From: a virus
DNA length: 43,135 bases
Strand: one strand, 5' to 3'
IMG/VR virus record: IMGVR_UViG_3300010224_000023
The notes under the pieces were generated by a model, which saw only the letters and a program-made list of their open reading frames with translations, had not been told where the DNA came from and ran no database searches. The position numbers and the translations under genes were made by a program. Positions 2,092 through 32,281 of the stretch are shown here, one piece after another; the stretch's first letter is position 1, and each line of letters opens with the position of its first letter.

Positions 2092-3276
2092 TTGAATCCC
2101 TTGAACCGGCTATCTATACAGCAGGGGAGCGTGACCATCAAGCCGCGCGCCAACGGCGCGGACGCATGGGTATACCGCTTCCGAGACGGCAACAAGCACC
2201 GCTCAATCGTACTTGGACGAGCGGACCAGATGAAAGAAGAAGCAGCTTGGCGCAAAGCGCGTCAGTTGCGGGCAAAGAGTTTCCAGCAGGGCGAGACGAT
2301 GACATCTCTGATAGACACCTACGAGCGAGAAGGCCTGCCAGCCCGTCAAAGCACGGCAGGTCCTTACCGCTCAATCCTCAAGCGTATCCGTGAGGAGTTC
2401 GGCGCGCAGCCGGTAGATGATGTGATGCTCAACGTCATGGGCGTGGAGCGTTGGCTAAACGGCCTGCAAACCATTCCTACCGCAACGCAGACTGCCCGTC
2501 CACTGTCCAGCCGTTCGCGCGGCCACATCAAGGCAATTTTTCACCGCCTTGGAGAGTTCGCGATGAAGATGAACATGCTGGACATGCAGCGAAACCCGAT
2601 GGCTCTCGTGGAACTCAAGGGCTATAACCAGCGGGTGCGCCACATTCCGGTTCTGACGGTGGAGCAGTATCACGCCATTGTCGCGGACCCGAAACTGGCA
2701 CAGCATGTACGGGTCATGGTGCAGGTAGCCATGATGCTCGGACTGCGCGCGAGCGAGTTCCTGGCGCTCCGGTGGGAAGACATCGACCTGCTCAACGGGA
2801 CGGTCTTTGTCCAGCGTTCGGTTGTCGGCAAGCATCAGGATGACACGAAAACAGCCACATCAAAGGAGGTTCTTCCTCTGCATCCGCACTTGGCGTCCGT
2901 ACTGATGGCGTGGCGTCAGCACTCGCCGGTCATCGAGGGTTGGCTGTTCGGCTCTCCGATCACCAATCGGCCGTATCACCGCGACGCACTCCAGAAAGAC
3001 CATCTCATCCCCGCTGGCAAGCGAGTGAATATTCCAAGTTTGGGATGGCACGCGTTCCGGCACACCTACCGTGCGATGCTCCGCAAACTGGAACTCCCTA
3101 TCGAGGTCCAGCAGAAGCTCATGCGCCACGCGGACATAACCACCACATCGAAGTATGGCCAGTCCGGCTCCATGCTCGAAGAACTCCGTCCAGCGAATGC
3201 GTTGCTGGCGGAACGGCTGCAAAATGGAAAGAGCACCGGACGGCCATCCGATGCTCCTGAGGAAAAAGTGAACTAG
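2092..3276 (+). CDS. int: Tyrosine recombinase / phage integrase
   Basis: The C-terminal catalytic signature is present: GLRASEFLALRWEDID (Arg box), HAFRHTYRAML (H-x-x-R), LMRHADITTTSKYGQ (H...Y). The start is uncertain: TTG 2092 or in-frame TTG 2101, which sits 9 nt after AGGAG. Confidence 0.9.
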   Translation: MNPLNRLSIQQGSVTIKPRANGADAWVYRFRDGNKHRSIVLGRADQMKEEAAWRKARQLRAKSFQQGETMTSLIDTYEREGLPARQSTAGPYRSILKRIREEFGAQPVDDVMLNVMGVERWLNGLQTIPTATQTARPLSSRSRGHIKAIFHRLGEFAMKMNMLDMQRNPMALVELKGYNQRVRHIPVLTVEQYHAIVADPKLAQHVRVMVQVAMMLGLRASEFLALRWEDIDLLNGTVFVQRSVVGKHQDDTKTATSKEVLPLHPHLASVLMAWRQHSPVIEGWLFGSPITNRPYHRDALQKDHLIPAGKRVNIPSLGWHAFRHTYRAMLRKLELPIEVQQKLMRHADITTTSKYGQSGSMLEELRPANALLAERLQNGKSTGRPSDAPEEKVN

Positions 3277-3279
3277 ACC

Positions 3280-3306
3280 GTGTTCCCTCGTGTTCCCTCG
3301 TGTTCC
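3280..3306. repeat. Tandem 10-bp repeat gtgttccctc x2.7
   Basis: gtgttccctc gtgttccctc gtgttcc lies directly between the int stop and the tRNA-derived core. It may be an arm-type recombinase or accessory-factor binding site. Confidence 0.6.
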
Positions 3307-3307
3307 T

Positions 3308-3355
<48 letters not shown>

Positions 3356-3802: not shown

Positions 3803-4057
3803 TTAGGCATCGGGTTCGGTCAGCGGTGCCGGATCGGGCAGAAGGGCGATGATGCTCTCTGCGCTGATGGGTGTTCCGCTGGCTGTGGCCCATGCCGTCA
3901 GAGCCTTCACGACGAGCTGCGCGGTCAGGTCCAGAACTACGCCGGCGGTTGCTGCGGGAAGCGCAACACCCGGATCCACACCTGCCACGGTAGAGAGAAT
4001 CTGGTCACCAATTGCCTGTCCTTCGCGGACATAGGTTGCGATAGTGGTCGCGTCCAT
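3803..4057 (-). CDS. Hypothetical protein (84 aa), last gene of the lysis cluster
   Basis: TAATG overlap with the lipoprotein gene stop. The protein is Ala/Val-rich and soluble, with no recognisable motif. Confidence 0.5.
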   Translation of the reverse strand: MDATTIATYVREGQAIGDQILSTVAGVDPGVALPAATAGVVLDLTAQLVVKALTAWATASGTPISAESIIALLPDPAPLTEPDA

Positions 4058-4434
4058 TACTTGCCTCCACAGACTGCGGTTGGGTTGGAGATGAGCGCCT
4101 GCACCTGCACCACGAGGGGAGCAAGGCCAGCAAGATCGGCTACTACGGCCGATTGCGCAGCCGTGGTATCACCCTTCGCTTCCTTCACGCGCTCAAAATC
4201 GAGGAATGCATTCACGGCGACCGTCTGCACGGCCTTGCCGTTCTCGATGAGCGACTTGGCGCATACTGTCTTCGGGATGGTGCGCGCCTCGTAATCCGCC
4301 TGTGCCTGGTCGATGACGGCTTTGGACGAGGAGAGTGTGTTGAACGTGGTGCGCTCCCAGTTGTCACAGCCAGCCAGCGCGAGAACGCAGACTGCGGAGA
4401 GCGCGCAGAGGTAGATTGCAACCAGTTTCTTCAT
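4057..4434 (-). CDS. Lipoprotein (125 aa); possible o-spanin-like or lysogenic-conversion lipoprotein
   Basis: The N-terminus MKKLVAIYLCALSAVCVLALAGC carries a lipobox, LAGC. It follows the holin-like gene directly. Confidence 0.7.
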   Translation of the reverse strand: MKKLVAIYLCALSAVCVLALAGCDNWERTTFNTLSSSKAVIDQAQADYEARTIPKTVCAKSLIENGKAVQTVAVNAFLDFERVKEAKGDTTAAQSAVVADLAGLAPLVVQVQALISNPTAVCGGK

Positions 4435-4435
4435 G

Positions 4436-4630
4436 TTAGTTGTCCTTTGCGAGTGTGAGGCTGATTGCCTTGGCTACGATGGCCGCCGTGAGAATCCACT
4501 GCGGAGTGTGAATGTGCTGCGTTTGCATGTCGGCCACCACCACCGTCACAATGCCTGCTGCGGCGATGGCAGTCGTCTTCCAGTTATTGAGCACCCGGTC
4601 GATCAGGCGCGTCTTGGTTACATCCGTCAT
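4436..4630 (-). CDS. Holin-like small membrane protein (64 aa)
   Basis: Internal ATG at 4630 preceded by GGAGGGG. MTDVTKTRLIDRVLNNWKTTAIAAAGIVTVVVADMQTQHIHTPQWILTAAIVAKAISLTLAKDN has two hydrophobic helices. The gene is adjacent to the endolysin. Confidence 0.55.
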   Translation of the reverse strand: MTDVTKTRLIDRVLNNWKTTAIAAAGIVTVVVADMQTQHIHTPQWILTAAIVAKAISLTLAKDN

Positions 4631-4796
4631 TTCCCCTCCATCTGCTTTTCCACGTCCTCTGCTGTCCATTGCAGGGCGTTGAAGATTGTTGTGCGTAGGT
4701 TCTGCTGGCGCTCGGACTCTGCCCGAACAGTTCATTTACCCGAGACACGACGAGTTCAAGCGTCTCGTCCAGCTTTTGCCGCGTGCGTCCGGTCAT
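4584..4796 (-). CDS. Hypothetical small protein (70 aa), uncertain
   Basis: ATGA coupling to the endolysin stop. The N-terminal 25 aa look helical. The C-terminal half is low-complexity and overlaps the holin-like start. Confidence 0.3.
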   Translation of the reverse strand: MTGRTRQKLDETLELVVSRVNELFGQSPSASRTYAQQSSTPCNGQQRTWKSRWRGNDGCNQDAPDRPGAQ

Positions 4797-5284
4797 GGCA
4801 TCGGCACCTCGTAATTCTTGAGGAGCCGTGCAATGTATTCGTGAGGCACGTTGCCATCACGGAAATTGCCGCTGTTGTAGGCATCCGCGATCTGCTCAAT
4901 GGTCTTGGCGCCCCTGTCGAGAATGGCCGTGTTGATGTGTCCGACCGTCTTCATGGCCGCGTACTCGCACCGCTCAAACAGCGCCGGGTCTGCATCGTTA
5001 CCGCAGTTGATGAGCAGGATTTGCCAGGGGCCATAACTGCAATGCGCAGCGTGTCCGAACTGTGCTGTGAGTCGCTGCACAATCGGCGCGCTGCTGTACC
5101 GTCCATGAGCGTCCGGGCAGTACCCGTTCTCATGGCGCGGTGTGCAGTTGGCTCCGAAGCTGCTTTCATTGCCAGCCAAAGCCCAGAGCAGTTGCGCCCC
5201 GTCTGTGCTGGTGTCCTTCAGCCACAGGCTCTTGCCCCATGTGCGGCAGGCTGCGGCTACTCGTTCGCGCGGGAATGTGTTCAT
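4793..5284 (-). CDS. Endolysin, lytic transglycosylase (SLT)-like
   Basis: ALAGNESSFG (catalytic E-S motif) and SYGPWQIL (compare GLMQI) are present. Position is within the lysis cluster. Confidence 0.65.
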   Translation of the reverse strand: MNTFPRERVAAACRTWGKSLWLKDTSTDGAQLLWALAGNESSFGANCTPRHENGYCPDAHGRYSSAPIVQRLTAQFGHAAHCSYGPWQILLINCGNDADPALFERCEYAAMKTVGHINTAILDRGAKTIEQIADAYNSGNFRDGNVPHEYIARLLKNYEVPMP

Positions 5285-5286
5285 GG

Positions 5287-7590
5287 CTATTGATTCGTCA
5301 CTCCGGCAGACTCAGCCAACCACGCGCTATCTGCCGTGTAGTAGACAAAGCACTGATGGTTGCGCTTGCTTGCGGTCGCGCCAACCGTCATCCCACCAAG
5401 CACGTTTGCAGGCCAAGCAAAAGTGCGGCTTCCTGTCGCGTCCTGCACGATGTTGAAGCAGGTGTGTTGACCGTCTAAGCCAGCGGCAAGCGTGGATGAA
5501 GTCACGTTGCCCGTCAGTACGATGCGATGGTTTCCTGCCGACACAGAGAACGTGGGGGTAGAGGAGAACGTTACCGCCTCCACGGTGTCGCTCATGGTGA
5601 GGAAGGTGAAGCCAGTCTGATGGGCAACGCCGGAATCAGTTCCCGCACCGTTGCCCCATCGCTGGATATTCGCCAGTTTAGAGCGGATGTAAACGCACGT
5701 ACCTGTATATCCAGTGGTCGCATCGCAGGAGGTGTGCGCCAATGTGCCCGATCCCTGCATCTGCGTTTCGATACGTTGCGCTAAATGGCTGGCGGTGGAT
5801 GATCCACTGTTATAGTTCAGCATCTCCGCAAGGTTTCCTGGGCCTGTTTGGCTATCCCATACGCTGCCGCACTGGAGGCTTCCATTCGCTCCGATACCGC
5901 AGCCAAACGTTCCGTCCTTCTTCAGAAAGCGCAAGAGTAGTGCTGTGCTATCCGACCACTGTGCGAGAGTGTTGCTGGCATTGCTTGAGTATGGGATACG
6001 CATAAAGCCGCGCTGCCCCGGGCTCGGCATAGTTGTAGTGCCGTCCGCAGCCTTGAAAACCGCCGACGGTGCTGGACTCCAAACGTTTCCGCTCCACGTG
6101 AGATCAAAATTTTTGTTGAAATTGTGAACAAGATTTCCGCCGATGGTGTCGAAGAGGCTATCGCGCAGAGCCACAGTTGTGCCGGAATAGTTGCAGAGTG
6201 CGTCAGTGGCGTAAGTCGTATCGCTGTGGGCGTACCACGCTTCAATCGTGATCGGTTCCGGCACCTTTGTTCCATCCGTACTGCCGATACGGATGATGCA
6301 GGTGTTCGTAGTGCTGTCACCGTTGAACTCGGTGTACAGACCGTGGAAGCTCACGCCTCGCGTGCCGTTTCCCTCAAGTACGATCGCGCCAAGCTTGTTG
6401 GTGCTGACAAGATTGCCGCCTGCAAAGGTGATCGTGTTGCTGAAGTTTGCCGATCCTGCGAGCGGCGTTCCGGTGCCGGTGCCCTCGTGAATACCGAGTC
6501 CGGAATTTCTGTAAAAGTTGGAGTTGACGAGCACGGTTGCATCTGTCTGCTGCCCAGCCGTCCAGCCGTCGCCTCCATTGTTACGAACCGTCAGCGTGTC
6601 GAGCTTGGTATTCGTGGTTTGCCATGTGTTCAGACCGGGGCCGCTGAATCCATAGATCTTCACGTCCTCAACTTCGTTGTCGTACATGTAGTTAAGATTC
6701 AGGCCGATTCCAGTGCCGGGAGTTACATATGTGGCGAGCGGAATCGTCGGTCCCGGAGGCCCAACAATCGAGAGATTCTTGACCGAATAAGGGCCGTTGA
6801 ACGTCGTGCCTGAATTGATACGCAATCCGTCTGTACTATCCGCCGTAATCCAGAGGATCGTGGATTCCTTGCCTGCGCCCACGATGTTCAAGCGCGAACA
6901 TGGAACCTCGAGAGAGGAAGTGAACTTGTATGTACCCATCGGAATAATCAGAGTTCCATTCAGGCACGCCGCTGTCATCGCTGTATTCCAGGCAGTGGTG
7001 TTATCAGATGCAGCAGTTGACGCACCATAGGAGCGGATGTCGGTAGCGTTGGGCAGGGCTTTACTATCCAACTGCGTCTGGATCGCACTAGTTACGCCAT
7101 GCACATAGCCAAGCTCTGCCGGGGTCGTGCTGCCGAGTGTCTTGTTCGTCAGCGTCTGCACGCCGTTGAGGGTGACATCGCCACCCCCCCCGCCGCCTAC
7201 TGCCGTCTTCGCCTGGATGCCAACCTTGTTGATGGTGACAACTGCTGTCCCTGTCCATGTCGCCGTAGCGGTGTAGTAGTCATAACCGCCAGTGACGGTC
7301 ACCACTCCGCTCGTGGTACCGGTGTACGGGTTGGAGCCGGATACAGGCGTAAGCGTGGTGCACGTTCCGCCCCGCATACAGCCCTGAAAGGTCACGCTCA
7401 TCGCTGAGGGTGAACCGCCGATGTTTACCTCGAAAGTGAGCGTTCCCGATCCGTAGCGGTCAAGGAAAGTCACGGACTGCCCGGACGCGTCGATTGTCCC
7501 GCGTTCCTGATCCTTCATCTGGGCGCTGGCAGTTGAAAGCAGTAAAACAGCGCACGCAATCGCGCCCGCTGCACGATGCAGTCGATTCAT
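5287..7590 (-). CDS. Pectate-lyase-fold (right-handed beta-helix) depolymerase / tailspike-like protein with N-terminal Sec signal peptide (767 aa)
   Basis: Strong SD (AAGGAG, 5-nt spacer) before ATG 7590. The N-terminus MNRLHRAAGAIACAVLLLSTASA|QM has an AXA cleavage site. TLTNKTL is a fibre-type motif. NATDIRSYGASTAASDNTTAWNTAMTAACLNGTLIIPMGTYKF matches the Pectate_lyase_3 N-terminal signature. Confidence 0.75.
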   Translation of the reverse strand: MNRLHRAAGAIACAVLLLSTASAQMKDQERGTIDASGQSVTFLDRYGSGTLTFEVNIGGSPSAMSVTFQGCMRGGTCTTLTPVSGSNPYTGTTSGVVTVTGGYDYYTATATWTGTAVVTINKVGIQAKTAVGGGGGGDVTLNGVQTLTNKTLGSTTPAELGYVHGVTSAIQTQLDSKALPNATDIRSYGASTAASDNTTAWNTAMTAACLNGTLIIPMGTYKFTSSLEVPCSRLNIVGAGKESTILWITADSTDGLRINSGTTFNGPYSVKNLSIVGPPGPTIPLATYVTPGTGIGLNLNYMYDNEVEDVKIYGFSGPGLNTWQTTNTKLDTLTVRNNGGDGWTAGQQTDATVLVNSNFYRNSGLGIHEGTGTGTPLAGSANFSNTITFAGGNLVSTNKLGAIVLEGNGTRGVSFHGLYTEFNGDSTTNTCIIRIGSTDGTKVPEPITIEAWYAHSDTTYATDALCNYSGTTVALRDSLFDTIGGNLVHNFNKNFDLTWSGNVWSPAPSAVFKAADGTTTMPSPGQRGFMRIPYSSNASNTLAQWSDSTALLLRFLKKDGTFGCGIGANGSLQCGSVWDSQTGPGNLAEMLNYNSGSSTASHLAQRIETQMQGSGTLAHTSCDATTGYTGTCVYIRSKLANIQRWGNGAGTDSGVAHQTGFTFLTMSDTVEAVTFSSTPTFSVSAGNHRIVLTGNVTSSTLAAGLDGQHTCFNIVQDATGSRTFAWPANVLGGMTVGATASKRNHQCFVYYTADSAWLAESAGVTNQ

Positions 7591-7611
7591 AGTTACTCCT
7601 TGTGTGTGGGG

Positions 7612-9600
7612 TTAGTTAGTGCAGGAGAGCGTGTACTGCATACCGGCTGTGGCGGTGTGCGTGAGCGTCACCGTGTTTGCCGCACTCACGCTGTAATAGG
7701 TGGTGGATAGGTTAGTTGCTGCGGTCGCATTTTCAGGAGTGACCGAACAATAACCTCCAGCGGATACCCCTGCGACCGTAAACGCTTCCGAAGTGACAGC
7801 CGTGGTGGTGACGTGTGCGCTTCCTCCACATCCAGTCGCCTGTGTGCAGATGTTCGAGCCGTTCACCGATGCACTGGAACCCTGCACGGTAAGCCCTCCG
7901 GTGATCGTCTCGTTCCCGAACAGTGTCATGGCTCCAGAAGTAAGGCTCAAGACGCGCGACCCTGAAATGTAGAAGTCGTGGGAAAGCGCCCGGTAGACAA
8001 GCGGTATGTATTCTTCCAGGTAGCTGTCGTAAGCCTGCAGCGTTCCGTTCCCGGATGAGACATAGCATCCCAGGGTTGGCCCCAGATAGCTTGTCACTGC
8101 GGCTCCAGCGCAGGTGAGCGATCCAACAACCTCCGCTCCCACAATCTGCGGGTTTTCATGCATCGCGTTCGTCTGCGGTTGGGGTATGTACGTCTGCGCC
8201 GAAAAGTAACTATTGAGCGCGTGCGCTATCCTTTGATTTTGCAGCGCATTGGGATGGGTGAAGTCCACAGTGCCCGGCGTCTCTATGTCCGTCACGCTCG
8301 GATAGGGCATCAACGCAGACATGTCAAACGGAGGGTATGTTCCGTTTGTGTCGCCCATGATGGCCTCATTGAACTCCTGCAGCCGCTGCAGCTGCGCCGG
8401 AGTGATCAAATCCACCGCCGTAAAGGAAACGCTATTAAGCTGTCCTCCGCTCAGAGCGGCCGACGCGAAGTCGAGGCCCGAGCCGGGTACAGCCAGAGTG
8501 ACCGATGTGGACGTCCATCCCGGCTGCACTGATCCCGCGTAGCCGTTGTAAATCTGCACGGGAGGGTAGAGTTGCGCTACCGCTCCGGTGACGGAAGTGG
8601 TCGAAATTGTGGCGCTGCCCGTCACTCCGAAGGTGATGGCGGTAGGAGAGGCTGCGGTAATCGCGCCAAGAGCCACATTTGTATTCAGACTGTCGCCGGG
8701 GGAGGTCACATTGGTGAAATAAGGAAACTGCCCTACTGAGAATGTGCCCGTACATCCGCTCAGTTCTACCGTCACCACCGTTCCGGCCTGCGCATAACTG
8801 CTCACATCGCAGGTTGGCGTGACGGTCATCACAGGGATGTTAGAGATGTACGCATAGTCGCGGGGGAACGATAATCCGGTGCCTGTAAAGGTGAGGTACT
8901 GCTGGCTTCCCGTATAGCTGGCTGCGACGGTGGAGACATCCATCCCGCCATTCGGGAAAGCGGGCGCTGTCGTCGCCGACGGGAGAACCGTCATCAGAAG
9001 AACATCGAAACCTGCCGCCTTCAGTGTCGAAACATAGCCATCGATACAGGACATCTCATCGGCCACACTGTCATTCAGATTGTTTCGGCCCACCATGATC
9101 GTTGCGATGCTTTGTATGGTGTTTCCGCCCGGCGCGTAATCGGCCACTGCCGAGGCCACTTGCGGCGCGATTGATGTGCATGTTGCTCCCGGCACGGCGA
9201 GATTGTGAACTGTAGCCTTCCCGGAAAAATATGGAAGACCCCCAAGAATGGTTGGCCAGTCCGTTCCCGGACCACCCGGAGTGTTCGCCGTGGTCGAATC
9301 GCCGAGCGTAACGAGATTGCAGGCGCTTGCTGTGCAGGCCGCGTTCAGGTCGGGCATGGTGGAATTCGACGTATACCATCCCGCCGTTCCGCACACGTAC
9401 GAGGTGCCAGTGCTCAGATCGGTGTAAGGCTGACCATAGTGCGAACTATCGCATGTGGATGCGGGCGCTCCGGTGCCTGTGACCTTCGGCCATTGGATTT
9501 GCGATGCAGGATTGATCTGCTGCGCGACAGCCATTGGTCCACAGCCAAAGACGTACATCGTCGCGACCCATCCAAGTAGGCGAATCATTAACTTCTTCAT
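7612..9600 (-). CDS. SGNH/GDSL hydrolase-domain protein with N-terminal signal peptide (662 aa)
   Basis: ATGA coupling to the tail fibre gene. The N-terminus MKKLMIRLLGWVATMYVFGCGPMAVA|QQ looks like a signal peptide or possibly a lipobox. LVTLGDSTT is SGNH block I and MVGRNNLND is a block III-like motif. The C-terminal region is Thr/Ser/Gly-rich and beta-rich. Confidence 0.7.
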   Translation of the reverse strand: MKKLMIRLLGWVATMYVFGCGPMAVAQQINPASQIQWPKVTGTGAPASTCDSSHYGQPYTDLSTGTSYVCGTAGWYTSNSTMPDLNAACTASACNLVTLGDSTTANTPGGPGTDWPTILGGLPYFSGKATVHNLAVPGATCTSIAPQVASAVADYAPGGNTIQSIATIMVGRNNLNDSVADEMSCIDGYVSTLKAAGFDVLLMTVLPSATTAPAFPNGGMDVSTVAASYTGSQQYLTFTGTGLSFPRDYAYISNIPVMTVTPTCDVSSYAQAGTVVTVELSGCTGTFSVGQFPYFTNVTSPGDSLNTNVALGAITAASPTAITFGVTGSATISTTSVTGAVAQLYPPVQIYNGYAGSVQPGWTSTSVTLAVPGSGLDFASAALSGGQLNSVSFTAVDLITPAQLQRLQEFNEAIMGDTNGTYPPFDMSALMPYPSVTDIETPGTVDFTHPNALQNQRIAHALNSYFSAQTYIPQPQTNAMHENPQIVGAEVVGSLTCAGAAVTSYLGPTLGCYVSSGNGTLQAYDSYLEEYIPLVYRALSHDFYISGSRVLSLTSGAMTLFGNETITGGLTVQGSSASVNGSNICTQATGCGGSAHVTTTAVTSEAFTVAGVSAGGYCSVTPENATAATNLSTTYYSVSAANTVTLTHTATAGMQYTLSCTN

Positions 9601-10349
9601 AGCGAAAAGGCTCCTTGTGCGAATAGCGCGTCATCCGAGGCTGGCGCCTGGGCGAATGTGACTTGGCCGGGGTCGGGTCCCAAGATGAATCCGTTGGTAT
9701 CATTTTGAATGAGGGGGAAGTTCTTCCAGACAAGCGCCTGCAGGGGCGTGACGCCGAGTGGTGTCCCGCCATTTGTCAGCGTGAAAACGCAGTTCGTCCC
9801 GTCCTGCACGCCGAGCAGTTCGCCGGAGAAAATCGCGGTTCCAATCGGTGACGCGGAGACGAGGCTAATGGCTCCGTCTCCGCCGAAATAAAGGAACTTT
9901 CCGGCGCGCTCCGTGGCGGTTGGCAGATTGACAGAACTCAAGTCGTCCGTGAGCCCGAACTTTATCGATCTGTCTGCGAGCACCTGTAACTGCTGAATGA
10001 GAATGGTTAGGCGATCAAAAACGGTGTTGAGCGTGTCGGGGTAAAAGCCACCGAGGTTCGTAAGTATGACCTGCTGCAACTCGGCAACATCCGACGTGAT
10101 CGTCATGCGGTAGGCGTTCGCCAGCGCAGACGTGAGCGTCACCGATCCGCCGGGCGAGACATCCTGATTCGCGTTCAGTACGGCCGTGTAATCAGTGCCG
10201 AGCGTAAGGATGGAGAGATTGCCTGCAGGGTCCTCTTGCAGAACATACAGATCACTCGTCAGAAAGACCTTGAAGTTGAATGGAAAGACGGTCGTTGTGC
10301 CGTTTCCGAGAAAAGGCCCCGCTTTCCGGTTTGTACTGGTAACTGCCAT
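9597..10349 (-). CDS. Tail fibre / particle-binding adaptor protein (250 aa)
   Basis: Start ATG 10349 with AGGAG 7 nt upstream (track ORF trimmed). The N-terminus MAVTSTNRKAGPFLGNGTTTVFPFNFKVFLTSDLYV matches the common podovirus fibre/spike N-terminal motif (Y/F-x-G-D/N-G-x-T-T-x-F). The C-terminal segment DGTNCVFTL...VTFAQAP looks Ig-like. Confidence 0.65.
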   Translation of the reverse strand: MAVTSTNRKAGPFLGNGTTTVFPFNFKVFLTSDLYVLQEDPAGNLSILTLGTDYTAVLNANQDVSPGGSVTLTSALANAYRMTITSDVAELQQVILTNLGGFYPDTLNTVFDRLTILIQQLQVLADRSIKFGLTDDLSSVNLPTATERAGKFLYFGGDGAISLVSASPIGTAIFSGELLGVQDGTNCVFTLTNGGTPLGVTPLQALVWKNFPLIQNDTNGFILGPDPGQVTFAQAPASDDALFAQGAFSL

Positions 10350-10380
10350 GGTTTCGCTCCTGCTGAGTGGCAATGGAAAA

Positions 10381-10398
10381 GGCCGCCCGGAGGCGACC
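10381..10398 (-). terminator. Weak hairpin (possible attenuator or terminator) between the internal-protein genes and the fibre gene
   Basis: The minus strand reads GGTCGCC-TCCG-GGCGGCC then TTTTCC. The single non-Watson-Crick pair is G-U on the minus strand and C-A on the plus strand. Confidence 0.3.
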
Positions 10399-10413
10399 TG
10401 GTGAGGTTCGGAT

Positions 10414-10701
10414 ATGATGGTGCGCATGTTCGAAAGACTGAAACAGCAGCCACTTATAGGCTTGGCGCTGGCAATAGCCGGAGGCTACGTGCTGGCGCAT
10501 GTGTTGATAGAAGTGTGCGATTATCTCTGGATCACTTACCTATGGGACTTTTCGGCTAGAAATGCGGATTCACTGGCCGCGTGGTGTGCAATCTTCGCGC
10601 TGGCTCTGTCTGCCTACTTTGGGTGGAAGAAAATGTGGACGATTCGGCGAAGCCATGACATCTCTAGTGAGACGCCCCAGCCACCGCACCCCACACGTTA
10701 G
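10414..10701 (+). CDS. Small 2-TM membrane protein (95 aa) on the opposite strand inside the structural operon
   Basis: It fills an otherwise unexplained 314-nt gap (10350..10663). It has two clear hydrophobic helices (LIGLALAIAGGYVLAHVLIEV and LAAWCAIFALALSAYFGW). GGTGAGG lies upstream of ATGATG. Confidence 0.45.
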   Translation: MMVRMFERLKQQPLIGLALAIAGGYVLAHVLIEVCDYLWITYLWDFSARNADSLAAWCAIFALALSAYFGWKKMWTIRRSHDISSETPQPPHPTR

Positions 10702-13700
10702 GGTGCTCAATCTTTCCTTGTTGTGATTTCCGTGTGTACCGCAGCGTCTTGAATATCTGATCTGTTCCGGGCACTCCGTAGGCTTCCATCGCCGCCTGCA
10801 GCGTATCCAGCCCGATTCCTACACGGTCTTTGATCTCCGCGTCTGATGTTGCGTGCACTACCGCCTTGGCGCCGCGCTCGATCATGCTCACGACGGGGGA
10901 GAAACGAACATCGCCCTTGTTCTCCAGGGCCTCTACCCCGATGTTCATAATGGCCATCGTTTCAGCAGGGAACAGCAGGGCGCGCTTGGCCGCCCACGTA
11001 CCTTTGTTCTCGTCGTCCTCGGGGCCTCGTCCGGTAAGCAGTGGTCCCATGATGGCCGGGATGATGGCTGCCATAATCATTCCGTAGGTGAGTTGGCCTA
11101 CTTTGCGGCTTTTCCCAAACTCGCTGGAAACATCGGCGATCTGGTTCCACTTGAGATTGTGGAAGCCGCCCATTGTTGTAAGCAACTTCGTAACGTCGTT
11201 GTTCCGCATAATGGGCGCGAGATCCTTTGGAGCATTCGAGCCAAGCCCCATACGTACGGCACCGTCTGCCTTGTGCATCGCCTGGTACTTCGCCTCAGTC
11301 TCCGAAAGGTGAACATTCTCGGCCAGGGCATTGCGATAGACAGCTAGCCACATCGGGAATGAAAGCATGTGGTCCATGAATTGAATCGGTGCCCAGCCTG
11401 CTTTAGCCCATACGTCCGCGACGGTCTTATTTCTCGTGCCGTCCTGAAGAACCTTGCGCATATCGCGGTCAAGATTCTCGCCGCGGGTCGCCATCTCATT
11501 AGGTGAAAGGTTCCGTATCTGCTCGGACATCTCAAACGGATGCGCCACGAAATCAATCATTGCCTGCGCGTAGGATGCCGGAGACGTGTGCAGGAAGATG
11601 CTGGAGGCGTGCGTCAACTGGAGCAGCATCGTAGAAAACTTGAATCCGAGCGCTGCCTTCACGACATTGGTGCGCAGGGTATTCATGGCGCGCGAAACGT
11701 CGCCCAACCCCTGTACCGTGCTGCCGTTGCGGTCGTTGATGATCGTCCGCAGCCATGGCATCATCTGCTTTTCATTGCCTACGCCAAGCGTCTCGCGAAG
11801 CGTCTGACGGATCGCCGGATCCAGCAATAGCTTGTTGGCCGTCAGCATGAACTCCCGATGAGTAATGTCTTTGATGACCTTCGCGGTGTGTTGCGTAAGA
11901 ACCTGTTCGTAATCGAGTTGGAGCGGGCCACCGAATCCGGTGCGCTCCTTCATGTTCCCGCGCGAGGTTGCCGCACGGCCATAGCCCGATTCCATCATGT
12001 TCTGCGCGGTCTGCCCTGCGTCCTGCTGCGCGCCACGTTTAGAGAAGCGCGGGTCCATCACCACGGGATAGTATCCGCCGGCAATATCCATAGTTGAGCC
12101 GTCCGCCAGTTCCACAGAGAACGGTTCAGGCTTTACCATCACCGGAGGCAACCCGGTCAGACGCTTTTCGAGTTCCGCCTGTGCTGCTCCGAGCGGCTTG
12201 AGTGAATCCCACCCGTCCTGCACGAACTGCCATTCCTCGCGCGTGAGCATGCCCTTGACCTTCTCAATGGCCGCCGGGTCCCAGCCGTGTGCGACGAACG
12301 TCTTCTGCAGGCGGTCGAGGTTGCCCTCATTCCCCATGTTGAACGCCATCGCCAGCAAGGTTCTACGGGTTACAGGCTCGGTAATGCCGTCGATGGTGAC
12401 CTTCTCGAGTAGCTTAAGTCGCTGCTCTTTTGGCATCTTCTCGAGCGCATCACCAACTCGCTTCGTTACCTCCGCCTGGAGTGCTGCCTCCTTACCCTGA
12501 GCATCCGCCGCAAGGTTCCACAAGTAGTCATGCCACGGCCCGCTTGTGCCACCATCCAGACGTTTCATAAGAAACTCTGTCCTGGCCAATAGCGCAGTGC
12601 CACGATTTACGAGATCGCCAGCCTTTTGCTCCGTTGTCCGGTTTTCATCGAGCACCGGACGCGGCTTGGACTTGATCGACTCGCGCGCCTGCGCAGCCAT
12701 ACGCTCAACGGCGGCATTGAACTCGATCTTGCGACCATTCACCTCCATGCCGAGCTCCTGCGATGCAAGATGCCGGATATTAGTCAGAGCATCGTGAAGC
12801 ATGCGTATTTCAGCCACACTCGCGTGCCGGTAGTGAACAGCGCGCGTCTCATCGAACATCTGCGGGTCGATGGCCGATTCCTTGCCCTCGTCATAGAGTG
12901 CAGACGCCCATTCGGCCAGCGTGCGCGCCGGCGGCTCAGCGGGTGCTGCAGCGAGCCCATAGCGGGAGAGCAGACGGTTGAACTGGTCGCGATAGTCCGC
13001 TCCTGCCAAACCAAGTTTCTGCTGCACGGTCTTCGTCTGCATGCGCTTGACGTAGGATTCAAACTTGCCGATGTACTCCTTGGCCTTCGTCGCCTCACGG
13101 AACAGGAAGTGATTCAGCAGTTCCTTATGCTTGGCCTGCGCAGCCTCGTCTATCTTTCCCTTGCGCAGTGCGTCGAAGGCCTCGCGCGAATACTTGCGGC
13201 TCGCATCCAGATAGCGGGTCGGCTGTAAGTCTGCAATGGCCTTCGACTCGACCATCTGCTGCGCGGCTTCGCGGTACGACTCGATGGGTGCAACCTGTAT
13301 CGAGCGCAGTGCGGATTTCTGGTCGGCGGCCTTACCTTTCAGACTCTCAATCTTCTTTTGGAGCGCCTTAAGTTCACGGTGCAGGTTTTCAGCGCGGTTT
13401 TGGTTTTCAACCGCCATGCGCGCCTGATCGTTCAGGCTGCCGTCATAACGGATGTCGCCATACTTATTCGTCATGTGCTCGCGGACGGACGTATCGATGG
13501 CATCAGTACGCCGCGGTACTGCCTCCAACGCGCTCAACATATCTTCCGCAGAGTTGAACCCGAGTACTTCCGCCGCTGCTTCTGTATCCACTCCGCCTTC
13601 GTTGCGGTACAGGCCAGGATGCAGCCGCTGGAGATCCTTCACGCGCTCCTCGCCGAACTGCTTTACCAGTTCTTCCCGCCTTAGGGTCAACGCAGTGCCA

Positions 13701-16700
13701 TCATCCAATGCGCCACGCCGGAGCGAGCGAATGGCCTGATACTCCGGCATACGATCAATCTGCTGTGTCAGAGCCTCGCGCGCGTTCTTTTCTTCTTCGC
13801 GCCATGCATCCGTGCGCTCGCGCACCGCAGCATCATTCAGCTTAGCCAGAATTTCAGCTTTGGCGTGCTCGACTTCCAGACCGCGCGCTTCCGCGTACTT
13901 CTGGAACTCCTCCTCCGTCCATCCAGCTTCTTCAGGACTGGAGAACAACTGCGGACCACCCTCCTGCACGGCACGATCCACGCCACCTTCCGCCGCGTAC
14001 AGGCGGTCGAAGACGCCGCGGATGTTGTCATTCAACTCCACGCCGAGGTCAGACGCTTTCTTGTAGACAGTCCCTAGCCAGATAGCAAACCGCTGAAAGA
14101 CTCCCTTCAACCCCTCGCTGGGAGCTTTACCTTCGCGTAGATATTGCTCATTCGCACGCGCCCAAGTTTCGTGCTGCTCGCGCGTAAGCGGTTGGCCCTC
14201 CTTTGCGCCGAGGTAATCGAGAATCTTCGCGTAGTCACCCTTGATGGTTTCGCTCGCGCCTTCTCGGGTAGCGAGTTCACTGATGATGTGCAGGTACGCG
14301 TGGGCGGGCTCATGTACAAACGTGCTGAGGTCGCCGATCTTCGTCCTCCCTATTTCATAGGTGCCGTCAGGCAGGACGCGGAACCAACCGCGCGGCGTGC
14401 CAGGTGCAGAGGCGGACTGGAGCATGAAATCATTGTTCTTGCCCGCCGTAGGGTTGCGGACTACAATTGGATCTCTGCCATCGCCTCGGGCGTTGGGATG
14501 AAGGTTGACCGCTATGCGGTCGGCATCCATCGTGGCAGGAAACCTCCGCATGGTGACTGCAGCAAGTTCTTTCGCCCCGCCCCTCTTCTTGCCAGCGCGA
14601 ACTTCTTCCACATAAAGAACCGATCCATCTGGCATTTTCTTGGCATAGCCAATCTGATCGCGGCCCAGACGATTCTTTGTGTTCAATATCAAATAATCTG
14701 GATCGCTGATAATCTCAGGGATCGATTCGAAGTCACGCTCGGTGACAGCTATCTGGCCGCGCTGAGCTTCGGTCTTCGCGTTCCCGTGACTATTGAGCGT
14801 ATGCCGAATGGCCGATCCATCGATGATGTGCGTGTAGCCATCGAGATCATATCCATGCTCCCTAGCCGCCTCCACCAGCCATGCGCCTACAGGTGCGATC
14901 ACCGCCTTATGTGGAACGTGTCCAGGCTGCTTCGCGGCCTCTATAACAGTCCGTATCTTCTCAATGGCCTCCTGATGTAAGGCCTGCGCGCCGGCTCCTG
15001 GCGATTCTTCCGCAACCACCTTGGGGTTGTAGTAGTTCACCAACTCGCTCGGCTTCAGGCCCGCACTCTTCGCAAGATTGCTATACGCGTTAGCATCCTT
15101 AACGGCCAGAGTCTCAGCCACTTCCGGAGTCTCGCCCGCATCCACGTAACGCTGGCGCAGGTCTTCCTTGACACTCTGCCATTCGGGGGATGATGCGGTT
15201 TCGGCATCGGCTTCCGCCGTCTCAGCCTGTAGCTTCTCGGGCCCACCCTCGGCAACCCACTTCTGTAGTTCCTCGCGGCCTTCCTGATGCTGGCGCATCG
15301 TGAGCCCGGTAGCGGGGTCTACTACATCAGCGAGTAATCCCTTTTGGTGCTCGGGGTCTAGCTTGGAGAGAAAGTCCGCTTTCGGAACTTCGACATCGCC
15401 ACCGGACAGCACCGCTTCCGCGTAATTGGAAGCGCCAATGTCTCCGGCTACCTCCGCAGGATCCATTTCCTTTCCTTTGAAATACTCGTTGAACTGTTCG
15501 GCGGGGATGCGCAGGCTTTCGTCGCCAGCGAAGATCGTCTGCAGCGCCTCGTGAAACTTCTCAGGAGAACGCGTGCGCAGTTGCGACTCATCCGCCGCAG
15601 CGACGGCTTGCGTCAGACTTCCAAAGAACGCGTCCGTACCGAGGTGCATACCGCCTTGCATGGCCGCACCCTGAACCGCAGCCGATGGGACACCCTCCAA
15701 AGTAGGCTTGCCGGTCACCACGTTCTGCGCTATCTGGCCTGACACTCCCGTTGCACTGCCGAGTCCAATCGAAGTCAGCAGCGGATTATTCCGCAGGGCA
15801 GGGATTAGGTCCGTCGCCCCAAACATGGCATTCGGCAGAACTGTGATTGCCGCCACGCGGTTTGCTGCCAGCCTCGCAGCATCATCGCTGCCACCGGCCC
15901 CCGCCACGGCGGTGTATGTCTTTCCCGCTTGGTCAGCGGTAAACATCCCACCGATAGTAAGGCCGGTTAGCACCTTAGCTGCTTTGTCGCTAAGTCCGAG
16001 CGTTTTAGCGAGAAGGCTTGTCCCTCCGGACGTTACGACAGAGGGCACCATCGGCGCGACATTCTTCATCAACCAGTCGAACTCGTTGCTCTTATGAAAG
16101 AGGGCAGACGGGTCCGTGTTCGTCTCGGCGCTTAGGCCAGTCTCGATGCGCTGCAAAAAGTTCTGTTTCGTTGGTCCGTCACCATGCAGCCCAAAGAATG
16201 AGGCGACGTTACCCACTATGCCCGCCGTGCCGCCCACTACGTCGATAGCTCCACGAGTCAGAGGAAAGTCATACGCGCGCTGCTTGACCTGATCGGGCGT
16301 ACGTCCGGTCACATCGGCGAAGGTCTGCGAGAGTTTGTCCCAAAAAGTAGGCGTGTACGCGCGCATCACTGCGGCGTGCTGCTCGATTCCAGCCAGGCGA
16401 TGAATCTCATCCACACCCGAGACGGCCGCATTGTGCGGATCGGACGCCCATCCCGACGTGATCGGTGCGATCTCCGTAAGGTATCTCGGGTCGATCCGGT
16501 TCTGGTTGGCTGCCTGCTGTACTTGATGCTCATTTCCCTGAGTGACTGACGGTGGGATGCCGGTCAGTTGTTGAAGCTGAAGCAGCTTGGCATACCGAAC
16601 AGGGTCTTGCTGGGATGCGTACGAAACCGCACCCTGCAATGCTTGGGCCTGAGTGGGCACCGGAGACGGCTCAGGTCCGGATATTGGAACAGCCTTATCG

Positions 16701-16729
16701 AAATCGAGGGTTACTGGAGTCGTCGCCAC
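10664..16729 (-). CDS. Giant internal virion / ejection protein (2021 aa) with embedded PBECR-like and HExxH zincin-like modules
   Basis: Its position after the two internal proteins and the tail tube genes parallels T7 gp16. There is a C-terminal hydrophobic segment, GQLTYGMIMAAIIPAIMGPLL. aa ~605-735 (nt 14525..14917) read THIIDGSAIRHTLNSHGN..RGQIAVTERDFESIPEIISDPDYLI. HEPAH is at nt 14300..14314. Confidence 0.75.
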   Translation of the reverse strand: MATTPVTLDFDKAVPISGPEPSPVPTQAQALQGAVSYASQQDPVRYAKLLQLQQLTGIPPSVTQGNEHQVQQAANQNRIDPRYLTEIAPITSGWASDPHNAAVSGVDEIHRLAGIEQHAAVMRAYTPTFWDKLSQTFADVTGRTPDQVKQRAYDFPLTRGAIDVVGGTAGIVGNVASFFGLHGDGPTKQNFLQRIETGLSAETNTDPSALFHKSNEFDWLMKNVAPMVPSVVTSGGTSLLAKTLGLSDKAAKVLTGLTIGGMFTADQAGKTYTAVAGAGGSDDAARLAANRVAAITVLPNAMFGATDLIPALRNNPLLTSIGLGSATGVSGQIAQNVVTGKPTLEGVPSAAVQGAAMQGGMHLGTDAFFGSLTQAVAAADESQLRTRSPEKFHEALQTIFAGDESLRIPAEQFNEYFKGKEMDPAEVAGDIGASNYAEAVLSGGDVEVPKADFLSKLDPEHQKGLLADVVDPATGLTMRQHQEGREELQKWVAEGGPEKLQAETAEADAETASSPEWQSVKEDLRQRYVDAGETPEVAETLAVKDANAYSNLAKSAGLKPSELVNYYNPKVVAEESPGAGAQALHQEAIEKIRTVIEAAKQPGHVPHKAVIAPVGAWLVEAAREHGYDLDGYTHIIDGSAIRHTLNSHGNAKTEAQRGQIAVTERDFESIPEIISDPDYLILNTKNRLGRDQIGYAKKMPDGSVLYVEEVRAGKKRGGAKELAAVTMRRFPATMDADRIAVNLHPNARGDGRDPIVVRNPTAGKNNDFMLQSASAPGTPRGWFRVLPDGTYEIGRTKIGDLSTFVHEPAHAYLHIISELATREGASETIKGDYAKILDYLGAKEGQPLTREQHETWARANEQYLREGKAPSEGLKGVFQRFAIWLGTVYKKASDLGVELNDNIRGVFDRLYAAEGGVDRAVQEGGPQLFSSPEEAGWTEEEFQKYAEARGLEVEHAKAEILAKLNDAAVRERTDAWREEEKNAREALTQQIDRMPEYQAIRSLRRGALDDGTALTLRREELVKQFGEERVKDLQRLHPGLYRNEGGVDTEAAAEVLGFNSAEDMLSALEAVPRRTDAIDTSVREHMTNKYGDIRYDGSLNDQARMAVENQNRAENLHRELKALQKKIESLKGKAADQKSALRSIQVAPIESYREAAQQMVESKAIADLQPTRYLDASRKYSREAFDALRKGKIDEAAQAKHKELLNHFLFREATKAKEYIGKFESYVKRMQTKTVQQKLGLAGADYRDQFNRLLSRYGLAAAPAEPPARTLAEWASALYDEGKESAIDPQMFDETRAVHYRHASVAEIRMLHDALTNIRHLASQELGMEVNGRKIEFNAAVERMAAQARESIKSKPRPVLDENRTTEQKAGDLVNRGTALLARTEFLMKRLDGGTSGPWHDYLWNLAADAQGKEAALQAEVTKRVGDALEKMPKEQRLKLLEKVTIDGITEPVTRRTLLAMAFNMGNEGNLDRLQKTFVAHGWDPAAIEKVKGMLTREEWQFVQDGWDSLKPLGAAQAELEKRLTGLPPVMVKPEPFSVELADGSTMDIAGGYYPVVMDPRFSKRGAQQDAGQTAQNMMESGYGRAATSRGNMKERTGFGGPLQLDYEQVLTQHTAKVIKDITHREFMLTANKLLLDPAIRQTLRETLGVGNEKQMMPWLRTIINDRNGSTVQGLGDVSRAMNTLRTNVVKAALGFKFSTMLLQLTHASSIFLHTSPASYAQAMIDFVAHPFEMSEQIRNLSPNEMATRGENLDRDMRKVLQDGTRNKTVADVWAKAGWAPIQFMDHMLSFPMWLAVYRNALAENVHLSETEAKYQAMHKADGAVRMGLGSNAPKDLAPIMRNNDVTKLLTTMGGFHNLKWNQIADVSSEFGKSRKVGQLTYGMIMAAIIPAIMGPLLTGRGPEDDENKGTWAAKRALLFPAETMAIMNIGVEALENKGDVRFSPVVSMIERGAKAVVHATSDAEIKDRVGIGLDTLQAAMEAYGVPGTDQIFKTLRYTRKSQQGKIEHPNVWGAVAGASH

Positions 16730-21918: not shown

Positions 21919-22579
21919 GCGCGGCTATCCCCGATGGAACCGGTTGATGATTGCCGTGTCTCTGATTAGCGTCCTGGCCCTTCGCCTCTTCGAAATCGAT
22001 GCGGAAGAAACCATCCTGCCGCTTGCTTTCAGCGGCTCCAGCATCGCCCTTGAGGATGGGACCGGCCAGCATGGATGCGAGACGCCGCGCCAGGGCGTTG
22101 GTGAATAGGGCGGGGAACATCCCCGGCTGCACGGTGGAGACGCAGTAACGTGCAATCGCGTCCTCTGCGTTGGAAAGAATCACCTGCTGACCGTTGAATA
22201 TCTCAATTTGGAAATCGCGGCCGCGCTCAATCTCAAACTCAAGTGGCCGCGTCCATCCCCAATAGTTTGCGATTGCCACACCGAAGTAATCGCGCGGGTA
22301 ATCGCACTTCGGAAGAACAGAGATCACATCCGTGCAATCGGACGGAAGCGCATAGGCGAAGCGCCATGCGTGGAAGTAGCAGTCCTGCACCAGCGCGAGA
22401 TACGCGCGTTTGGTAGTGAAGTTCCATTGGTGGGATTCGAGCAGAGTATTCAGCGCAATAGGGTAGAAGCGCGCGCAGTGTTGCGCCTGCGCTGACCCTT
22501 CCGGCGGATCAATACTCGCGACGGTCGCTGAGTCTCCCAGATACGACAGTGCGAGATTGCAAATATCGACAGCTACCAT
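21911..22579 (-). CDS. Tail tubular protein A / adaptor-gatekeeper (T7 gp11-like, 222 aa)
   Basis: The N-terminus ICNLALSYLGDSATVASIDPPEGSAQAQHCARFYPIALNTLLESHQWNF parallels T7 gp11 as remembered ([41 protein letters not shown]). Confidence 0.7.
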   Translation of the reverse strand: MVAVDICNLALSYLGDSATVASIDPPEGSAQAQHCARFYPIALNTLLESHQWNFTTKRAYLALVQDCYFHAWRFAYALPSDCTDVISVLPKCDYPRDYFGVAIANYWGWTRPLEFEIERGRDFQIEIFNGQQVILSNAEDAIARYCVSTVQPGMFPALFTNALARRLASMLAGPILKGDAGAAESKRQDGFFRIDFEEAKGQDANQRHGNHQPVPSGIAARA

Positions 22580-24357: not shown

Positions 24358-25005
24358 TTACTCCTTCTTAGAAGTCGGGTACAGGATTTCGGCAGTGGTC
24401 TTCGTGTTCTGCGGACTCACAGAACCACGCACAAAACCGTCCTCACTGAGGCTCTGCCCGACCTTGACGAACAACCGGATAACTTCCGGGTTGTTACCGA
24501 GGCCGGTCGTGTTCAACAGCGTTTTCAACTCGGGGCTGGCGAATGAGTCCATGGCTTTTTTGGCCGTGGCAAGATTCTCCGGCAGCTTCTCGCCACCGAA
24601 TTCCTTGTCAGTCTTGGCGGCTTCAAGCCACCCATCCTGAACTGCCTTCACCTGGGACTGCTGACGTTCGGCCAAAGCCGGAGCCATCTTGTCCAGAAGT
24701 TTCTGCGCGGCGTCCTGCGTCAGGTTGGCTTCTTTAGCCGCTGCCGAAAAGGGTTCCAATACCGCAGAGTCGTACTCCTTACCTTCCGGTGCCGTAAACT
24801 CGTAAGTCTCTGGCGCACCTTCTGGCTTGGTTTCCTCTGCAGGCTTGGCCTCTTCGGCTGGCTTCTCGCCTTCCTTGGGCTGTTCGCTCTGCTGCTGTTG
24901 TTCCGTGGCAGCGGTTTCCGTGCTCGTTAGCAGGGTTTCCGTTGCCGCTTCTGACGCGGGTGAGCCTTCAGTTGGTGTGGTCGGCTGTTCCGTCGCTTCT
25001 GACAT
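24358..25005 (-). CDS. Scaffolding protein (215 aa)
   Basis: The protein is acidic, Glu/Ala/Lys/Thr-rich and low in complexity, and is predicted helical. It sits between the portal-associated gene and the capsid gene. Confidence 0.7.
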   Translation of the reverse strand: MSEATEQPTTPTEGSPASEAATETLLTSTETAATEQQQQSEQPKEGEKPAEEAKPAEETKPEGAPETYEFTAPEGKEYDSAVLEPFSAAAKEANLTQDAAQKLLDKMAPALAERQQSQVKAVQDGWLEAAKTDKEFGGEKLPENLATAKKAMDSFASPELKTLLNTTGLGNNPEVIRLFVKVGQSLSEDGFVRGSVSPQNTKTTAEILYPTSKKE

Positions 25006-31969: not shown

Positions 31970-32006
31970 CACCCCTCCAACCCTTCCCGGTATGACCGGA
32001 GACTTA
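31970..32006 (-). repeat. Repeated intergenic element, copy A (stop - CCGGTCATACCGG palindrome - SD)
   Basis: cccctccaac(c/t)cttcccggtatgaccggagactta is shared with 32245..32281, 36 nt with 1 mismatch. Confidence 0.85.
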
Positions 32007-32244: not shown

Positions 32245-32281
32245 TACCCCTCCAACTCTTCCCGGTATGACCGGAGACTTA
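32245..32281 (-). repeat. Repeated intergenic element, copy B
   Basis: See copy A. A degenerate third copy (cccggtatggccggaca) lies at 32593..32609 inside the rusA 3' end. Confidence 0.85.

Follow-up and report, generated by a model that had tools for sequence, protein, structure and literature searches.

Tailed-phage assembly is, by the textbook account, cytoplasmic throughout. How should one then read two large genes that stand in the tailspike position of a podovirus and begin with what look like cleavable Sec-type signal peptides? The two genes, here called A and B, belong to IMG/VR virus record IMGVR_UViG_3300010224_000023, a contig of 43,135 nucleotides (nt) that was analyzed at its entire length and is referred to below as the window; its podovirus structural block, recognized by PHROG matches, lies on the minus strand. 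We propose, tentatively and with a little less than even confidence, that A and B are exported tail-spike/depolymerase proteins that would meet the particle only at lysis. That both are exported to the periplasm or beyond appears, judging from the sequence, highly probable.

Both open reading frames (ORFs) were recovered on the minus strand where an earlier sequence-only reading of the window had placed them, and they are the sole long ORFs in that stretch. Their parts are listed below, with a slash marking a predicted cleavage site.

7612-9600, minus strand: gene A, 662 amino acids (aa); signal peptide, N-module with a cysteine pair, split SGNH esterase, conserved C-terminal module
9523-9600, minus strand: predicted signal peptide of A, residues 1-26, cleavage AVA/QQ; the family alignment puts the A-x-A/Q boundary here
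9376-9522, minus strand: N-module of A, residues 27-75, INPxxQIxWPxxTGxGAPxxxC...YGQPYTD...YxCxxxGW
8944-9327, minus strand: SGNH esterase blocks I-III of A (PF13472), residues 92-219, with GDS at 100-102 and GRNN at 171-174
8254-8265, minus strand: SGNH block V of A, DFTH, residues 446-449, aligned to YDGTHP in the homolog P0025
7615-7818, minus strand: C-terminal module of A, residues about 595-662, two conserved cysteines
7596-7601, minus strand: Shine-Dalgarno sequence AAGGAG of gene B
5287-7590, minus strand: gene B, 767 aa; signal peptide, N-domain, Gly linker and fibre motif, probable beta-helix, C-terminal domain
7522-7590, minus strand: predicted signal peptide of B, residues 1-23, cleavage ASA/QM, by direct reading
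7057-7197, minus strand: Gly6 linker and fibre motif of B, VTLNGVQTLTNKTL...ELGYVHGVTSAIQTQLDSKA, residues 132-178
6091-7038, minus strand: right-handed beta-helix of B, probable only, residues ~185-500, from sub-threshold matches only
5290-5598, minus strand: C-terminal domain of B, residues 665-767, resembling phiTE_241_C

The reported coupling of A to the upstream gene, a 250-aa adaptor, was confirmed: the adaptor TGA (9597-9599) overlaps the ATG of A (9598-9600) as ATGA, and an AAGGAG is found 10 nt before this start codon. Gene B has the AAGGAG ascribed to it, followed after 5 nt by its ATG at 7590, and its end is separated from the next gene by 2 nt. Because of the ATGA overlap and the 2-nt gap, the adaptor, A, B and the lysis-type genes can be treated as a single packed block. 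No promoter-like site was found before A or B, the single match in the scanned region sitting inside gene B.

The N-termini read as had been claimed, MKKLMIRLLGWVATMYVFGCGPMAVA/QQ for A and MNRLHRAAGAIACAVLLLSTASA/QM for B. Signal peptides were called with our own heuristic, rule-based check together with family comparison; the rule for Sec (signal peptidase I) substrates was a positive n-region, an uncharged hydrophobic h-region of ~10-20 residues and small residues at -3 and -1. Gene A follows this pattern with K2, K3 and R7, then LLGWVATMYVFGCGPM, then AVA/Q, and gene B with R3 and R6, the h-region AAGAIACAVLLLST and the c-region ASA/Q. A lipobox ([LVI][ASTVI][GAS]C at the end of the h-region) is absent from A, in which VFGC has F at -2 and lies inside the h-region, the family AVA/Q boundary following 6 residues beyond it; the leader of B has no lipobox candidate. 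Neither leader contains RR, and no signal for twin-arginine translocation (Tat; S/T-R-R-x-F-L-K) was found in them. Beyond the leader, no hydrophobic segment was seen in either protein within the first ~50 residues, the range scanned. In the h-region of B 10 of 17 residues are G, A, S or T, with the canonical ASA/Q after it, and the A-type family leaders are rich in Leu and Phe. With its Ala/Gly-rich h-region, B might instead begin with a signal-anchor-release (SAR) segment; the body of the protein would be periplasmic either way. B is without a full-length homolog and its leader was judged alone. In a crude ORF survey, the only late-strand products of this genome that start with a leader were A, B and a 125-aa LAGC lipoprotein.

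When 1.84 billion representatives were scanned in full with HMMER, 266 matches were obtained, on the separate modules of A. Dozens of proteins, from ~70 aa to >1100 aa long, have at their very N-terminus a stretch that aligns to residues ~7-100 of A, and each of these N-module proteins consists first of a leader and then of INPxTQIxWPxxTGxGAPxxxCxSxNYGQPYTDxxxxxxYxCxxxGW. Across 33 members the leaders are 18-30 aa long, end with small-x-small before Gln, have K or R within the first 8 residues in 32 of the 33 and contain D or E in one; eight residues of the following module (W37, P46, C50, G56, P58, Y68, C70 and G74) are invariant. Pairwise identity is 19% in the leader versus 56% in the N-module. 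The homologs retain their signal peptides, kept as a physicochemical pattern and not as a sequence, and such preservation of chemistry without sequence argues for a signal peptide and not for a docking peptide. The C-terminal module of A ends more than 80 proteins, and most of the full-length ones start with a leader. Over the full-length matches as a whole, a crude rule finds a leader in 76 of 98. A Pfam scan of 76 family members named almost nothing. The sequence-only reading had treated a single genome; the leaders turn out to be no one-genome oddity but a recurrent trait of a phage group, accompanied by a partner gene. Variant N-modules in several relatives (e.g. ...PSGxCxxPxxLEQYNGDIYxCDPxxxxW) suggest a wider superfamily of Cys-pair N-modules.

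The cysteines form a second signature. Mature A has 14 and mature B 12, arranged in sequential near pairs (alternating-gap test, p=0.016 for A and p=0.004 for B), with predicted pairs such as 50-70 and 618-660 in A and 71-77 and 711-747 in B. The 2021-, 709- and 240-aa virion proteins of the same genome have zero cysteines, the capsid protein one and the portal two. An even mature count was found in 68 of 79 leader-bearing relatives (binomial p=2e-11; median 10, none with zero). At the phage loci, where ORF calls were crude, the rule flagged 30 ORFs of at least 250 aa, 29 of them with an even count; six were set aside by eye as having 0 Cys, being tape-measure-like or being a spurious antisense ORF, and the remaining 24, all in the tail-fibre slot, were even without exception (24/24). 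Among leaderless ORFs the count was even in 33 of 59 and the cysteine content about half. The even-Cys signature is confined to leader-bearing genes and points to disulfide-bonded, extracytoplasmic proteins, as far as sequence can predict them.

Seventeen IMG/VR loci carry the N-module, and none shares the other genes of the window. All contexts read are phage tail modules, representing no fewer than four types, and in them the leader-bearing genes come last before the lysis genes; a host-derived, non-phage origin of the family was rejected on the same grounds. In L124, L127 and L130-132, myovirus baseplate clusters (hub, wedge, baseplate protein) are followed by one to four leader genes and then endolysin, and L125 and L133-135 represent a second 40-kb podovirus type. 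L150-152 have a 1323-aa protein and seven genes without PHROG match, a putative tail module going by size and position only, then a leader gene and the lysis cassette. The leader gene of L153 adjoins an integrase, and L156 has five successive leader genes before its lysis genes. Two loci are BPP-1-like: L155, with a big protein, a 193-aa adaptor, a single 878-aa leader protein and lipoprotein-bearing lysis genes, and L202, whose 273-aa adaptor precedes a single 1176-aa leader protein containing 22 Cys, with its leader passing straight into a pectate-lyase-like domain. Fibre proteins at ~50 other BPP-1-like metagenome loci mostly measure 450-1050 aa, with a few shorter ones, and the genes after them lack real leaders (judged by eye from printed N-termini, as the rule over-called); among these controls only L202 resembles the window. 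Runs of three to five consecutive leader-bearing, even-Cys genes before lysis were seen in L156 (341-12049), L127 (9941-19471) and L124 (4993-12877).

The partner gene in the window is the adaptor.

9597-10349, minus strand: adaptor/connector gene, 250 aa, start at ATG 10349 rather than at the upstream ATG 10427
9900-10349, minus strand: tail-attachment N-domain of the adaptor, residues 1-150, 49-53% identity to four relatives
9606-9830, minus strand: C-terminal connector domain of the adaptor, residues 174-248, proposed docking platform

The start at 10349 was chosen because homologs begin MTISS... Residues ~1-150 are homologous to the tail-fibre attachment domain of the BPP-1 Bbp9 type, which is said to resemble T7 gp17, and also to epsilon15-type spikes. 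In tblastn, the adaptor matched the N-termini of BPP-1 Bbp9, phiV10 and Caulobacter phage tail proteins, with matches in 106 phage records, and its N-domain is encoded at 251 metagenome loci. PHROG tail-fibre families (15, best E=1.7e-25) cover just residues 27-152 of the longer adaptor ORF. Proteins that share the attachment domain are longer, 508 aa for BPP-1 Bbp9 and 875 aa for the phiV10-type spike. The expectation that this 250-aa fibre would be the only receptor binder did not hold up, since it consists of a tail anchor and a connector domain and shows no evident receptor-binding part.

The connector domain, residues 174-248, has its match at the C-terminal end of a 174-aa L150 protein (44% identity, E=7e-17), which directly precedes and overlaps a leader-bearing gene in a phage with a different tail module. 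A second connector type (NG..Q..G.DYT..G..IT......GD.V..Y) ends the leaderless gene just upstream of the leader gene in L155, L127, L131, L132, L134, L125, L133 and L135; in L148 it occurs two genes upstream. A leaderless, connector-ending gene lies directly upstream of the leader gene, often overlapping it, in at least 11 loci, and the pairing of a leaderless connector gene with a leader-bearing gene is thus conserved across tail architectures.

What lies behind the leaders is modular. The SGNH esterase claimed for A was verified with Pfam Lipase_GDSL_2 (PF13472; 35.5 bits against a gathering threshold of 32.9, E=1.8e-8), and by its blocks and profile A is a predicted SGNH/GDSL hydrolase. The domain is split by an insertion of ~220 aa between blocks III and V, which is common to the homologs, and GDS, GRNN and DFTH are kept in P0021 and P0025. 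An AlphaFold2 (AF2) model of the N-module from 9 sequences gave a predicted local distance difference test score (pLDDT) of 68-87 over residues 30-80 and a small beta domain; weak fibre and collagen-like fold matches of this model are not taken as evidence. A relationship of the N-module to Mtd_N (PF18454), the attachment domain at Mtd N-termini, was considered and rejected (hhalign probability 0.13). A has no sequence match to any PDB chain. Word-indexed protein searches with A and B returned self-matches or one short motif only, and neither has a close homolog in the phage database or IMG/VR.

In B, the TLTNKTL fibre motif is present as described, and the flanking motif ELGYVHGVTSAIQTQLDSKA has counterparts among the repeats of 15 tail-fibre-like proteins, many of which carry Pfam Mtd_N. 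The pectate-lyase/beta-helix assignment could not be substantiated, with no Pfam match at E<=0.1; the scores obtained are weak (Pfam Beta_helix, E=0.46; TIGR03805, 21.9 bits against a cutoff of 141.5), and an AF2 model of B built without an alignment had a pLDDT of 35 and was unusable. PF12708 is present in the relatives L124 and L202. An NCBIfam search with eight proteins (A, B, the 250-aa adaptor, two lysis-cassette products and three L127 proteins) yielded one sub-threshold beta-helix match, on B. B has no PDB sequence match and no close homolog in metagenome contigs. Its C-terminal domain is better connected, with phmmer E=1e-17 to P0041 and 4e-15 to P0004 and 52% identity in BLASTP. P0041 (180 aa) is composed of a leader, an A-type N-module and a domain like the C-terminus of B. 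The same domain occurs in P0066 and inside leaderless, baseplate-proximal stub proteins of L131 and L132, and the L202 adaptor appears, by eye and without an alignment score, to end in such a domain; it therefore moves between leader-bearing and leaderless baseplate or adaptor proteins. Homology between A and B themselves was rejected, as they have no similarity and are joined only via modules shared in third proteins (P0041, P0066).

The two genes occupy the slot of BPP-1 Mtd in the order big protein, fibre, receptor-binding protein, lysis genes and phage attachment site (attP), and receptor-binding proteins usually combine a conserved N-module and varying distal domains. That A and B are tail spikes is supported by this synteny with Mtd, the adaptor that lacks a distal part, the N-conserved/C-variable architecture, the partner gene and the sharing of modules. 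They would be the distal receptor-binding or polysaccharide-modifying proteins of a BPP-1-like temperate podovirus, made as Sec precursors. Translated late from the same packed block as the adaptor, they would cross the inner membrane, lose their leaders at AVA/QQ (A) and ASA/QM (B), and fold and oligomerize in the oxidizing periplasm with about 7 (A) and 6 (B) disulfides. The particle would meanwhile be built in the cytoplasm with the 250-aa adaptor alone, as tail anchor plus connector. Once the holin/endolysin/spanin-type cassette breaks the envelope, the two pools would mix and the spikes would dock on the adaptor, A via its N-module. Before lysis, the exported esterase and the probable beta-helix enzyme may already be at work on the polysaccharide that the dying cell is making or has at its surface. 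Attachment after lysis is physically plausible, given that spikeless P22 heads in lysates accept added tailspikes. That a whole phage group, probably one of Acidobacteriota, finishes its virions only after lysis by Sec export, periplasmic oxidative folding and docking on spikeless particles is a possibility that we hold with some doubt.

Several points weigh against docking at lysis. We know of no tailed phage that exports a virion component, and the prior for the proposal is low for that reason. The argument is computational throughout. B has no N-module, which leaves its docking unexplained, and the modelled N-module of A has no significant PDB or BFVD fold match. The N-module consensus has a weak match (E=0.04, 38% identity) to the Campylobacter phage CP30A tail fibre (L157, residues ~1113-1165), and this lookalike in Eucampyvirinae is near the fibre C-terminus and not at the attachment end; it is without the first N-module cysteine and may be a chance match or a distant relative of the module. 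A single superfamily of connector domains was not borne out (hhalign E=0.11 between the two types). The small connector domain, or the B-C-terminus-like domain of the L202 adaptor, could itself bind the receptor, with A and B dispensable.

The best-surviving alternative, which we still consider unlikely, is that A and B are exported but never join the particle, acting as free periplasmic or secreted enzymes that cut, strip or deacetylate host exopolysaccharide or O-antigen. They would release progeny from the matrix and eliminate the receptors left on debris, much as a neuraminidase does, and the C-terminal domain of the adaptor would be the true receptor binder, as the tip of the L202 adaptor might suggest. 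All the evidence for export applies equally here; the enzyme domains (SGNH in A, pectate-lyase-like in L202) fit, and so does the rule of cytoplasmic virion assembly. Among the carbohydrate-active enzymes of prophages, about 5% have a signal peptide (PMC13507307), which also counts for free enzymes. However, several phages (L155, L150, L125, L133-135) would then be left with only a 55-75-aa receptor domain, minimal members such as P0041 carry no enzyme domain, and neither the N-module shared right after the leader by unrelated enzymes nor the leaderless connector gene upstream would be explained.

It is improbable that A and B are conventional cytoplasmic spikes, with the hydrophobic N-terminus serving as a plug or helix on the adaptor, or with inefficient export leaving a cytoplasmic fraction to be assembled and disulfides forming after release. 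Gene position, coupling and fibre-type modules would all agree with this, and to our knowledge every tailed-phage spike described so far assembles in the cytoplasm. An internal Met near each predicted cleavage site (M23 in A, M25 in B) could moreover give leaderless isoforms. Yet no Shine-Dalgarno sequence precedes M23 or M25, and most family members have no internal Met nearby and none is conserved, so that dual starts were rejected. A leader that varies in sequence while keeping its chemistry and A-x-A/Q is the opposite of a docking peptide, and paired cysteines are found in the leader-bearing proteins while the other virion proteins have few or none.

A role in lysogenic conversion or superinfection exclusion, with A and B expressed from the prophage and remodelling the receptor in the periplasm as phiV10 Oac or T5 Llp do, is very improbable, although the sequence-only reading had offered lysogenic conversion as one option: although the phage is temperate, the phiV10 O-antigen acetyltransferase gene adjoins the spike gene and an esterase could undo acetyl marks, A and B lie inside the late block, tied by ATGA to the adaptor and by 2 nt to the lysis-type genes with no promoter of their own in sight, are large, fibre-like and modular with no features of small lipoproteins or membrane enzymes, and have counterparts in the same arrangement in L127 and L150, where a general reading of ~20 kb, not aimed at integrase, showed no integrase.

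Returning to exported spikes that would join the particle at lysis, the parts have separate counterparts among known systems. In BPP-1, as here, a short attachment protein (the Bbp9 fibre) is followed by a separately encoded distal protein (Mtd), and the gp37 adaptor of K1E, K1-5 and SP6 carries two spikes, a comparable order of adaptor and then separate distal proteins. In all these systems the distal proteins have no signal peptide and are assembled in the cytoplasm, whereas here a leader is present. Phage G7C gp63.1 is an SGNH-esterase tailspike attached N-terminally through gp66, with no leader; A shares its O-acetyl-esterase-type SGNH domain but differs in the ~220-aa insertion and the leader. 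T5 Llp and Cor are small signal-peptide lipoproteins with a lipobox, encoded beside the receptor-binding protein gene and acting on the receptor of the infected cell, whereas A and B are 662 and 767 aa long, modular and enzyme-bearing, with no canonical lipobox. The Gtr/Oac modifiers of lysogenic conversion are integral membrane enzymes with their own promoter and prophage expression, which A and B do not match. The only well-known precedent for late export is that of Sec-exported and SAR endolysins (fOg44 Lys44, P1 Lyz), late phage proteins that pass through the host Sec pathway before lysis (PMC6116005); these, however, are lysis enzymes from outside the tail module, and no role on the particle has been proposed for them. 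Pantoea stewartii WceF is a tailspike-like trimeric beta-helix enzyme with a signal peptide that acts on the bacterium's own exopolysaccharide (PMC7949094). It differs in being chromosomal, encoded in an exopolysaccharide gene cluster and exported folded by Tat, while A and B have no twin-arginine and sit in a phage tail module.

Full-text literature searches returned no account of tail fibres or spikes with signal peptides, and a paper on acidobacterial phage isolates makes no mention of them. As a natural pathway, attachment after lysis is unprecedented. If true, it would amount to a two-compartment assembly pathway undescribed for any tailed phage, with virions finished outside the cytoplasm; alternatively, some phages would have replaced virion-borne depolymerases with secreted ones. 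For soil viromes, prediction of receptor-binding proteins with filters that drop signal-peptide proteins as non-structural would miss proteins of this type, and the leader trait explains why they carry no annotation. Depolymerase production would need periplasmic or oxidizing hosts. New phage-specific modules also emerge from the analysis (the N-module, the connector domains and two C-terminal modules), together with a gene pair on which docking could be studied.

The remaining features of the window are as follows, assigned by PHROG unless stated otherwise.

28178-29626, minus strand: terminase
25306-26973, minus strand: portal
24358-25005, minus strand: protease
23281-24351, minus strand: major capsid protein
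21911-22579, minus strand: tail tube A
19585-21918, minus strand: tail tube B
10664-18858, minus strand: internal/ejection-type virion proteins of 240, 709 and 2021 aa (2970 residues in total)
3803-5284, minus strand: lysis-type cassette, 2 nt after B, with 163-aa, 99-aa, 125-aa lipoprotein (LAGC) and 84-aa proteins, placed by position
3308-3352, minus strand: 3' half of initiator tRNA-Met, 45 nt, probable attP core adjoining the integrase gene
2092-3276, plus strand: integrase

Among cultured phages, the nearest to this one are the Bordetella BPP-1 group, Limnohabitans DC33 and Caulobacter podoviruses. The phage, of soil type, is temperate, having an integrase and a tRNA attP. The 5' half of the initiator tRNA-Met is missing beside the integrase, and Rfam and tRNA scans of the window found no complete RNA gene. 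Exact matches of the 45-nt piece come for the most part from genomes of Acidobacteriota, though Planococcaceae/Bacillaceae and Rubrivivax also supply some, and integrase homologs adjoin the initiator tRNA-Met in Edaphobacter and in metagenome-assembled genomes of Acidobacteriaceae. Because of these exact matches and of the integrase homologs beside the same tRNA, the host is probably a member of Acidobacteriota. A direct repeat, GTGTTCCCTC, occurs twice at 3280-3305 and adjoins the tRNA piece, and in an integrated prophage the tRNA-fMet 3' end would be expected to adjoin ATTAGGAACACGAGGGAACAC.

The products of the lysis-type cassette have no family match in Pfam or PHROG, and a lysis role is suggested by their position and by synteny with BPP-1. 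The 163-aa product (4793-5284, minus strand) contains GNESSFG...YGPWQI, which by eye resembles a lytic-transglycosylase motif, and six cysteines; by this motif it is likely an endolysin. On the other side of the block, the 314-nt gap between the 2021-aa gene and the adaptor has a terminator-like hairpin (10380-10399, minus strand), and a 95-aa ORF with two hydrophobic segments by eye lies on the opposite strand (10414-10701). The region 10350-10701 may be a moron or a transcription boundary just ahead of the adaptor-A-B-lysis block.

The same 9-nt tandem repeat is present at both contig ends, so the contig is probably circular or a complete genome. The repeat, (TGCTCCNGC)n, lies within 1-190 and 43040-43135; across the end junction the array codes for a (Cys-Ser-x)n protein run, CSDCSNCSRCSDCSSCSS..., of at least 30 units with ordinary sequence on either side, and the assembly probably broke inside it. 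A 36-nt element with a hairpin, CCGGTATGACCGG, occurs three times (31971-32006, 32246-32281 and 32578-32613), at a spacing of ~275-330 nt, in or near the gaps between successive small minus-strand early genes, and could be a repeated regulatory element or one proximal to ribosome-binding sites.

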